Origin: a virus
Taxonomy: Duplodnaviria > Caudoviricetes
DNA length: 37,837 bases
Strand: one strand, 5' to 3'
Virus record (IMG/VR): IMGVR_UViG_3300034103_001120
Location: 1 to 37,837 of that record
Positions within the stretch are counted from its first letter, which is position 1. Each line of letters begins with the position of its first letter. The notes beneath the pieces were generated by a model. The model was given only the letters and a program-made list of their open reading frames with translations. It had not been told where the DNA came from and did no database searches. Below are positions 2,122 through 28,904 of this stretch, piece after piece. The translations under genes and the position numbers were made by a program.

Positions 2122-2439
2122 GGGTGCCCGGTCCCAAGCCCGGGCACCTTCAAGGGATCGGATTCGGCGGTTGCAACGCTAGACGTATGCGGGGATCGGA
2201 AAGCGCGCCGGTACTATCGCATGCGAGACAGGGCCCCTCTACGGCCGCGTCGTCGAGTCCGATCCCTTGAGGGTGAATGCGCAGAAGGTGCCCACACGGG
2301 AGCGCACACAGTCAAAACGCGAGGGCTTGCAACCTCGGGAGGAAAGCATCTCCAAGCCCAGACGGCAGCAATGCGGGCGCTTGGCTGACGGAAGAACACG
2401 TGATGGTTCTACGCCGGGGTAGCGTCCGGCCACCCTCAA
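2122..2439 (+). ncRNA. Candidate structured ncRNA block 1 (minihelix, 25-bp stem, expanded tRNA-like cloverleaf)
   Basis: Hand-paired helices 2123-2131/2140-2148, 2145-2169/2251-2275, 2267-2275/2431-2439; T-arm-like GCCGG-8nt-CCGGC at 2413-2430. Confidence 0.65.
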
Positions 2440-3041: not shown

Positions 3042-3120
3042 GCGGGTTGACTAGCGCAAGGGGCGCGCAACAGCCTTCCAAGCTGACGACCGCGGAGTTC
3101 GACTCTCCCAGCCCGCTCCA
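3042..3120 (+). tRNA. tRNA-Gly(TCC), atypical or degenerate
   Basis: Acceptor GCGGGTT/AGCCCGC, anticodon loop CTTCCAA, T-loop TTCGACT, discriminator T plus encoded CCA; D-arm is odd and the anticodon and T stems are only 4 bp. Confidence 0.75.
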
Positions 3121-3553
3121 ACGTTCCACCGGCCCTAGTGGCCGTAGCAATACCCCGGCGGCAACGCGTGACCGGCACGGCCTAGCCCCAGAAATGGGCT
3201 CCGGAGGTGATGCTTGCGGTTTCGACCGTCAAGAACCAGAGACGAGACTAGGCCCGGGGTTCCAAGCAATGCGGCTTGCGGCCTCTTGATTGAGGCGACT
3301 TGCAAGGCGAGGGTATATCTAAACCATGGTTAGTGCCGGTTCGACTCCGGCCCGCATTGTGCAATAAGGCGAGCATCGAGCGCCGTGACTCGATGCAATG
3401 CTGAGCCGACATTTAACTCGGCAGCCGGTGGAATTCCGGCGCAGTAAGGCGTTGCCCCGGCCATGCGGGGCGCTGTTTCAAGCGGTAAGGATTGGGCGTT
3501 CCCGGTCGCCGCTGTTCCACAACCCGCCCCAGCGCATCGGGGCGGCCTTATTC
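3121..3553 (+). ncRNA. Candidate structured ncRNA block 2 between the two tRNAs (several tRNA-like units)
   Basis: GNRA/UUCG tetraloop hairpins; closing stems 3152-3158/3254-3260 followed by TCCA, 3267-3274/3352-3359, 3363-3370/3545-3552; two GCCGG-7nt-CCGGC T-arm-like hairpins. Confidence 0.7.
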
Positions 3554-3628
3554 GCGGGGCTAGCTGAGATAGATTAGCGTCGGCCTGAAAAGCCGAAGAC
3601 GTTGGCGCGATACCAACGCCCTGCACCA
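3554..3628 (+). tRNA. tRNA-Phe(GAA) with non-canonical T-loop
   Basis: GCGGGGC/GCCCTGC acceptor, GCTG/TAGC D stem, TCGGC-CTGAAAA-GCCGA anticodon arm, GTTGG-CGCGATA-CCAAC T arm, ACCA end. Confidence 0.88.
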
Positions 3629-3630
3629 CT

Positions 3631-3861
3631 TCACCCCGCAGCCTCCCCCTGCGGTCCGAGGCCACAATCGACTCCCCCGGTTGTGGCCTCTTCTTTGGGG
3701 TATGCAGCCAACGCGGCTCCAATCGCAGCCTTGGGGCCGCCTAGCTTGGCGATCAGTGTTTCTAGGCTGGCGATTGCTTCAGGGCTGGTGAGGACGGTAG
3801 ACACCGGCCGACCCCTTGATCGGCGGGCGGCTTCGCGGGTTGCGGATTTCTTGGCGGTCAT
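3631..3861 (-). CDS. Small basic protein, possible DNA-binding regulator
   Basis: Basic N-terminus (RRSRGRP), then a short strand and two helices; AAGGA SD. Confidence 0.55.
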   Translation of the reverse strand: MTAKKSATREAARRSRGRPVSTVLTSPEAIASLETLIAKLGGPKAAIGAALAAYPKEEATTGGVDCGLGPQGEAAG

Positions 3862-28061: not shown

Positions 28062-28904
28062 TTAACCTTCTTTTTCAAATTTTGGGAGTTTCGTCTTGAT
28101 CACGTCGCGCTCATGAGCGGAGAAAATACCGCCCTTTGTCGGGGCTAGCCACAAATCCATCTGAGCGGCCTGCGGGATGCAAGCCCAAGTTTCGGCAACG
28201 GTGTAAAGTTCGTCGGGGTCTTGCGACGTATCCCAGCGCGCAATGCATTCTTTGATCAGGTCAACCGACGCAAAGTATTGGTCATAGGCCTCATCGTGGC
28301 GAGCCTTTCTGTCGTCTTTAACCGTAAGAAGCGGGATAGTCTCGTTTTCATGGATCACCGTGGCGTCTGCGATCCTCTCCGCCTCGTCCGGCTCGACAAT
28401 CCCAGCGAATCCGAAGGCATAGCGGGCCGCCTGAATCGTGGCCTTGTGGCGGAGCATGCGCGCCGGCCAGCGTTTCCACACGTCTGTTCCACGCAAACAC
28501 TCAGCCATGTATTCGGTGACAATAACGGGATGCGCGCGGTCCTTCCGGAACATCTTGCACGTCACAGAAATCAACGCGCCTTTGTCGTCTGTATTATCAA
28601 CAAACTCCATGCCATCGAATGCTGGATGACCGTTGATCAGCTTGAGCCAGCCATCCACACTGACCACGGGGATAATCCCGCCGTTGGCCGGAAATGCGAA
28701 AATCTCCTTAGTGAACGGGTTAAGCCCGTGTTCTTTCGCAACAAGGCAGAAGGCTGCAACCTGCTCATCGCTAACTTCTTTCCCGCCCATTACGGTCTTT
28801 TTCATGGTCTGGATAAAAGCCCTTTTATCCATCCCATAATTGCCAGCAAGCGAAGCAATGATGCTTGCCCCGGGGTTTTCGCTAATTGGTGCAATGTTGC
28901 TCAT
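28062..28904 (-). CDS. bet: Single-strand annealing recombinase (lambda Red Beta/RecT family)
   Basis: [41 protein letters not shown]...P.RMLRHKA.IQ.AR.AFGF.GI. Confidence 0.93.

Follow-up and report, generated by a model that had tools for sequence, protein, structure and literature searches.

Known phage RNAs resembling the element

The phage RNAs C4 and CI have a fixed antisense function, and we know of no swappable insert in either of them or in M3. C4 (from P1/P7), CI (P4), and M3 (phi80) are small RNAs cut from longer phage transcripts by host RNase P; the E. coli enzyme is reported or suggested to act on all three (PMC5499578). They are a model for the maturation proposed here for an element at positions 2267-2439 of the window, the 37,837-nt stretch of phage DNA that was analysed, in which a tRNA-shaped frame encloses a variable insert. 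In contrast to that frame, they are said in that source to lack a T-loop equivalent, and none has an Rfam match in the window. The T4 RNAs RNAC and RNAD, described as small RNAs of unknown role from the phage tRNA region (PMC3014915, PMC9697503), have a lytic myovirus context and resemble the element in genomic place.

sRNA-17 of E. coli K1 RS218 is a prophage-borne 193-nt RNA detected by Northern blot and RACE (Sun et al. 2020, PMC7719688). Its deletion altered expression of unlinked genes, direct targets not being demonstrated in the text of that paper, where homologues are given by BLAST only and the word 'tRNA' is absent from the main text. The last base of the printed 193-nt sequence is the first of the frame's closing stem. 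From the RACE primers and probe, we infer that the transcript is the frame strand, the paper printing the opposite orientation; on the frame strand, this would put the 5' end at the first base of the 9-bp stem, with the 3' end at a terminator. Because that terminator lies about 57 nt past the frame, and the 5' end is 2 nt upstream of where the 12-bp RNase P rule would place it, tRNA-style maturation is unproven even for sRNA-17. The two RNAs share the same frame and are both non-coding. They differ in that sRNA-17 has an unrelated insert, keeps the consensus loop-loop pairing, runs on to its terminator, and adjoins a repressor gene.

STnc100 (RF02076) is described in the sources consulted as prophage-borne and expressed (PMC5331693; expression also PMC12370729), and as related to PasD (PasD1/PasD2; bioRxiv 10.64898/2026.05.13.724894). 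Judged by eye from the Rfam consensus, it resembles the frame in its GGUG/CACC closing stem, short linker, D-like hairpin, insert, T-like arm, and complementary loops, whereas its D stem and loops are different. The STnc100 model gave no match in the window at E<=10 (its 47-bit cut-off was not reached), and an STnc100 copy scored only 11 bits on our own frame model, R1. STnc100/PasD is likely a sister family.

Genomic setting

As a complete virus record of 37.8 kb, the window represents a P22-like podophage, with genes for portal, scaffold, coat, head closure, DNA ejection, a Bet/RecT-like annealing protein, RusA, and HNH. Its coat protein finds its best match among cultured phages in Pseudomonas phage PAE2 (38.5%). 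The DNA is present in lake-water runs, and no RNA dataset is listed among the runs carrying it. The element lies in the gap from an SPFH-type gene, which ends at 2040, to the start of a 72-aa gene at 2460; a probable tRNA-Gly and a tRNA-Phe, on the same strand 0.6-1.1 kb downstream, and then lysis genes lie 3' of it. The gene order, together with the layout of phage HK620, in which a copy of the frame is located between pR'/qut and the terminator tQ, suggests by analogy that the array occupies a late-operon leader. The features discussed are as follows.

2054-2114, + strand: conserved non-coding element heading the array, matched in L014, L015, and contigs of runs X4 and X24
2122-2149, + strand: minihelix-like hairpin (inverted repeat) overlapping the 5' end of the long-stem unit; also in L014, L015, and L104
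2145-2275, + strand: upstream long-stem unit; its outer stem uses the 5' acceptor strand of the frame and its interior is also exchanged in relatives
2267-2439, + strand: whole tRNA-shaped frame RNA with insert, a diverged family copy (R1 match, fold)
2267-2275, + strand: 5' strand of the acceptor-like stem (7-bp core 2269-2275), common to the upstream hairpin (fold, inverted repeat); retained in both relatives, X22 and X24
2278-2306, + strand: D-like hairpin with a 19-nt loop, usually 6-7 nt in the family (fold, R1)
2307-2412, + strand: variable insert replacing the anticodon and variable arms, with a predicted multibranch fold (z -0.9); exchanged in X22 and X24
2413-2430, + strand: T-like arm, its 5-bp stem stacked on the acceptor (fold, R1), its loop neither canonical TTCRA nor family consensus
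2431-2443, + strand: 3' acceptor strand 2431-2439, then A-CCA at 2440-2443 (sequence)
2460-2678, + strand: 72-aa gene, ribosome-binding site at about 2449-2455, some 10 nt after the frame; start region retained in X22 and X24
3042-3120, + strand: probable tRNA-Gly, anticodon UCC, encoded CCA (Rfam tRNA 24.5 bits, under cut-off); resembles the tRNA-Gly of L243
3268-3358, + strand: second, different tRNA-like frame with a 7-bp acceptor, canonical TTCGA T loop, and T arm at 3335-3351; no R1 match
3424-3440, + strand: lone T-like hairpin without a 7-bp acceptor
3554-3628, + strand: tRNA-Phe (GAA), called by ARAGORN and Rfam
28062-28904: Bet/RecT-like annealing protein (gene annotation)

The 72-aa gene has no PHROG match, and the probable tRNA-Gly is not called by ARAGORN. 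The element at 2054-2114, for which Rfam holds no match, carries a 26-nt insertion in the contigs of X4 and X24. The loop and stem of the hairpin at 2122-2149 match the conserved P4/L4 part of twister ribozymes at 21.5 bits, the rest of the ribozyme being absent; a twister assignment (twister-P5, RF02684) for 2116-2143 was rejected, with one hairpin only and a cut-off of 37.6 bits. More stem-rich non-coding units surround the tRNAs (3119-3262, 3440-3556, and 3736-3831; 3440-3560 folds at z -2.7). Around the tRNAs, tRNA-Phe included, the X24 contig keeps short anchors and differs in the sequence between them. A long GCC/GAC repeat at 60-400 of the window would, if translated, give an alanine-rich tract.

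Predicted structure and a competing upstream fold

Every stem listed for 2267-2439 in the initial annotation was recovered, and together they make up its minimum-energy fold: 2267-2275/2431-2439, 2278-2282/2302-2306, 2309-2315/2381-2387 with three inner hairpins, 2393-2397/2406-2410, and 2413-2417/2426-2430. By energy alone this fold is not beyond chance (z -1.5; 12 of 200 shuffles equally stable), and it is comparison with relatives, not fold energy, that raises the frame above chance. Like tRNA (RF00005), the element has a 7-bp acceptor, a short linker, a hairpin in the D position, a 5-bp T stem stacked on the acceptor, and A-CCA after the 9-bp stem. Unlike tRNA, it lacks both an anticodon arm with a 7-nt loop and a TTCRA loop, and neither ARAGORN nor Rfam calls it as a tRNA.

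A 25-bp inverted repeat, 2145-2169/2251-2275, had been overlooked. It includes the 5' closing strand of the frame, and the region 2140-2280 folds at z -6.2. Because the 5' acceptor strand is common to this upstream hairpin, the cloverleaf has a rival fold. For the closing stem, a computed probability of 1.0 drops to 0.34 once the transcript is extended to 2120-2445 and to about 0 for 2050-2445; forcing the stem in longer transcripts costs 1.5-6 kcal/mol (1.5 kcal/mol in 2120-2445), in a computation without pseudoknots. Ten D-loop bases, 2284-2293, could pair with 2142-2151, the upstream competitor of the acceptor strand, a 10-bp complementarity reached in 8 of 5000 shuffles. This complementarity may free the acceptor or serve as a replacement contact, or it may be a local duplication. 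Pairing of the D loop with the loop of 2122-2149, as a permuted form would have it, was rejected at 4 bp, the chance level.

A family of tRNA-shaped frames

The lead to a family came from the element at 2054-2114, whose matches L014 and L015 contain a related frame. The window's frame ends, separated by a gap of 100-130 nt, served as a search pattern in IMG/VR and returned 82 loci, 72 of them distinct. These 72 viral copies carry inserts falling into 53 clusters. No 11-mer is common to the window insert and the 72 inserts, and the inner multibranch fold is thus without homologue. Beyond the bases fixed by the pattern, the closing stem pairs in 71, 70, and 66 of the 72 copies (shuffled 40, 36, and 32), and pairing fades beyond 7-8 bp.

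GTDB genomes were scanned with the D-like arm alone as anchor, which gave at least 120 loci (about 420 estimated), 77 with enough flank. The 7-bp acceptor closes on a 5-bp T stem in 40 of the 77, compared with 0-3 in 20 shuffles, around inserts of 33-163 nt. About 8 of the remaining 37 are, by eye, members below threshold; the rest are apparent chance matches, many in coding DNA. The T-loop sequence, which was unselected in this test (the test selects pairing), proved complementary to the D loop. Most hosts in the closed set are Gamma- and Betaproteobacteria, the frame as a whole being widespread among phages and prophages of proteobacteria.

Alignment A2 comprises 32 of 112 elements, with short ones and loop variants chosen on purpose and the window excluded. 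Double-sided changes occur at 6 of the 7 pairs in the acceptor, 2 of the 5 in the T stem, and 3 of the 5 between the D and T loops, this last count being inflated by the deliberate choice of rows; the D stem has none. Paired cells amount to 96% (84.5% shuffled), in samples selected by patterns that presuppose part of the pairing. By these comparisons, the family frame is a 7-bp acceptor-like stem, a 2-3 nt linker, a D-like hairpin, a variable insert, and a 5-bp T-like stem. Across the family the D loop is complementary to the T loop and the two covary; they would form a 5-6 bp loop-loop duplex in place of the tRNA elbow contacts. Only its acceptor and T arm had been described as the common scaffold; both are present, and to them the D-like hairpin and, normally, the D-loop/T-loop pairing have to be added.

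Model R1, built from the 32 members without the window, has 2267-2439 as its sole match in the window (32 bits, rough E 2e-6; next best 9.8 bits), a match that is not fully independent because part of the training set came from the window-derived pattern. Other family members score 47-88 bits, and the mEp460 copy of sRNA-17 scores 84.6 bits. The acceptor, D-like stem, and T-like stem are present in order in 2267-2439, together with the exchangeable insert. We file the element as a diverged variant because the D-loop/T-loop complementarity of the family was not found in it, the best D/T loop duplex having 3 Watson-Crick pairs, no better than shuffles. Loop-loop pairing is also weak in L036, L079, and L249, which retain the frame. 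NCCA directly follows the 7-bp acceptor in 7 of 112 members and lies within 8 nt of it in 42 (28 shuffled); in the window, A-CCA follows the 9-bp stem, not the 7-bp stem. A same-strand tRNA is found at 11 of the 112 member loci and an opposite-strand tRNA at none.

Rfam gave no match over the frame in the window, L014 and L015, 20 of the 82 pattern loci, or 4 annotated loci. The family is uncatalogued in Rfam, with one member, sRNA-17, already in print as an isolated sRNA and the only one for which a discrete transcript beginning at the closing stem is on record. BLAST of 2040-2470 gave no match among cultured phages. In E. coli, a piece of the family frame is located by BLAST in 735 of 5426 genomes, and the unannotated frame is present in the well-known phages HK620, HK629, mEp460, and ZC03. 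A literature search that had most subscription journals outside it found no description of the frame-plus-insert design. The frame motifs were likewise not found in the main text of papers, a weak search since the motif occurs in the supplement of PMC7719688. Several other leads were discarded: a 16-nt insert motif (11 chance matches), one metagenome scan (7 chance matches), sRNA-Xcc1 (RF02221; PMC2996969, 10.1101/2020.03.17.996009), whose Rfam model has no match in the window, and a resemblance to an RNase P RNA junction or to GOLLD, for which there is no Rfam support. The SPFH-gene neighbours L001 and L002 lack the element.

Insert exchange and insert content

Four runs were compared with the array. 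X24 and X22, represented by contigs from other samples, match it piecewise, X5 matches 2030-2298 unchanged, and X21 has no match. X24 keeps 2079-2170, 2254-2281, and 2426-2467, with 115 nt in place of 83 and 79 in place of 144 between them; X22 keeps 2135-2154, 2264-2284, and 2413-2480, and replaces 109 nt by 97 and 128 by 88. The retained pieces are the stem ends, with joint sides of 20-28 nt and one contig for each relative. Three of the four replacements (+32, -65, and -40 nt) break the reading frame, so the ORFs at 2089-2388 and, before 2460, 2277-2678 are not conserved. A conserved ORF, for example 2089-2388, had been named as the finding that would overturn an RNA reading, and these lengths speak against it. 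Comparison of the related sequences thus supports both insert exchange at this locus and the absence of a conserved ORF.

The inserts were surveyed in 91 non-redundant examples. Their folds are weak (median z -0.5; 5 of 91 below -2), as is that of the window insert alone (106 nt, with loops of 8, 8, 4, and 8 nt; z -0.9). GNRA loops are enriched (16 against 5.6 expected), as are T-loop fragments (7 against 0.1), and no further motif is common to the 91. An anticodon-decoy function was considered and rejected, anticodon-like loops showing no enrichment (1 against 0.5), and so was a mini-ORF, a Shine-Dalgarno sequence with ATG occurring in 1 of 91 inserts against 4.8 when shuffled. The inserts look like recycled pieces of structured RNA, rather than anticodon decoys or mini-genes.

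Chained units and other GCCGG arms

The overlap of the frame with an upstream hairpin recurs in the family. Such a hairpin takes the 5' acceptor strand of the frame in 24 of 111 members (0-3 in shuffles). Once a near-duplicate is set aside, 20 of 23 have an upstream partner weaker than its downstream counterpart, 3 an equal one, and none a stronger one, a bias due partly to selection; in 18 of the 23, another hairpin directly adjoins the upstream strand (2.4 expected). The window's own junction has 16 matches: 4 by chance in apparent coding DNA, 1 weak, and 11 members, several of them close kin and two repeating earlier elements, with the overlap visible by eye in 10 of the 11. These comparisons argue for a genuine sharing of the strand. 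The upstream units are often tRNA-like; in L111 and L246, genuine tRNA D and T arms enclose a long insert. The shell of the window unit, 2154-2266, is reused in L014 around a family frame and in L246 around a tRNA-type body.

Further arrangements were seen among these units. In L111:465-606 and in the L246 unit just upstream of the frame, the insert takes the place of the anticodon arm and the extended closing stem is common to the next frame. In the tRNA-like unit formed by the upstream hairpin of L090, the insert, about 100 nt long, sits within the D loop and not at the anticodon arm. Those of L016, L039, L063, L097, and L161 represent a second frame type that recurs, in which an extended acceptor stem encloses a distinct D-like hairpin and a GCCGG-type T arm. 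Weak tmRNA-like Rfam matches lie just upstream of the frame at L101:2155-2356 (phage Madison) and L098:2205-2352 (HK620), and ARAGORN calls a permuted tmRNA at L012:2095-2483, an unrelated viral contig.

The window has four GCCGG-N5-10-CCGGC sites (2413, 3335, 3424, and 13663) where 1.3 are expected; four or more turn up in 7 of 100 shuffles. The arms at 2413, 3335, and 3424 do not make one family, as the initial annotation had supposed. R1 matches only 2267-2439, 3268-3358 is a different frame, with one homologue (L258) of different interior among its three matches, and 3424-3440 lacks a 7-bp acceptor. The proposal of an RNA family with a common scaffold and exchangeable inserts is borne out for the element itself by the tRNA-like frame, the 53 insert clusters among 72 copies, and the swaps in X22 and X24. 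Since several frames carry a GCCGG stem, the idea also holds in a wide sense.

Proposed maturation and function

It is highly probable that 2267-2439 is a copy of the family and is non-coding, and it probably gives rise to a discrete, stable RNA. We propose that this RNA, tRNA-shaped and released by RNase P, presents its exchangeable insert to the host, an explanation that as a whole we hold to be evenly balanced between right and wrong; action of the insert in trans is itself put forward tentatively. The array is likely transcribed together with the neighbouring tRNA genes, as part of a late leader. The upstream strand would hold the acceptor strand temporarily until the better-matched 3' strand is made, when the acceptor-like stem is predicted to close by displacing the upstream hairpin, RNase III perhaps cutting the long stem first. 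Host RNase P would then cut at the 5' end, at 2267-2269, to leave a stable non-decoding small RNA in which the frame shields the insert. Inserts may be swapped by homologous recombination at the constant ends of 25-30 nt, the phage encoding a Bet/RecT-like annealing protein, and the insert would likely be presented to host RNAs or proteins. Against this explanation, the window copy lacks the loop-loop pairing of the family and scores well below other members, and the computed ensemble of long transcripts does not form the acceptor. The inserts are weakly structured and have no common motif beyond GNRA loops and T-loop fragments, NCCA directly follows the 7-bp acceptor in so few members, and the ends of sRNA-17 leave tRNA-style maturation unproven even for that RNA.

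The ribosome-binding site about 10 nt past the frame could mean that the frame acts in cis, as a processing or stabilising signal within the late transcript, protecting the 5' end of the mRNA for the gene at 2460 or for the next module, while the insert is neutral filler drifting by recombination. The weak, unconserved inserts and the place of the HK620 copy agree with such a role, as do the 25 of 91 members with a Shine-Dalgarno sequence and start within 60 nt downstream of the frame, an uncontrolled count. We nevertheless think it rather unlikely: 66 of the 91 have no such start, the ZC03 copies sit within tRNA clusters, and sRNA-17, from the published account, is a free RNA ending at a terminator whose deletion affects unlinked genes (PMC7719688). 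The overlap with the upstream hairpin, with its abutting further hairpin and with folds that differ by only 1.5 kcal/mol in 2120-2445, raises the thought of a two-state, attenuator- or riboswitch-like switch controlling the downstream genes. This seems very improbable, given that no terminator-like site exists on the + strand within 2041-2460, that the Shine-Dalgarno purines stay free of pairing in either computed fold of 2041-2462, and that most members are without the overlap; in addition, the interiors are unrelated, so the family has no common ligand pocket.

The 32-bit score, the missing loop-loop pairing, a D loop 13 nt longer, and a drifted T loop could all be signs that the window holds a decaying copy of a functional family, one that no longer forms the tRNA-like elbow. 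Yet all three frame stems are perfectly paired, and X22 and X24 retain pieces of the frame while the interior has changed. L249, L079, and L036 likewise keep the frame despite poor loop pairing, and the extra D-loop bases are those complementary to 2142-2151 (a replacement contact, or a local duplication); decay is in our judgement improbable. A protein-coding role for the stretch (through ORF 2089-2388 or 2277-2678), or a fold due to chance, is scarcely credible. Both ORFs exist and the fold z is only -1.5, but the length changes in the relatives contradict a coding reading, the ORFs have no PHROG match, and the R1 match and covariation count against chance.

Returning to the tRNA-shaped RNA released by RNase P, we offer as a speculation, and an unlikely one in its full extent, that proteobacterial phages have a natural RNA display system. 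Interlocking tRNA-shaped frames would be matured by host tRNA enzymes, and their hypervariable inserts would be reshuffled by phage recombination at constant ends and selected as decoys or antisense RNAs against host defence and regulation. sRNA-17, probably STnc100/PasD, and the lake-phage copies can be viewed as one frame-plus-cargo design, which makes the role of the non-decoding RNAs in phage tRNA regions directly testable. If the inserts do act on the host, they would be a diversifying, RNA-level counterpart of phage accessory proteins.
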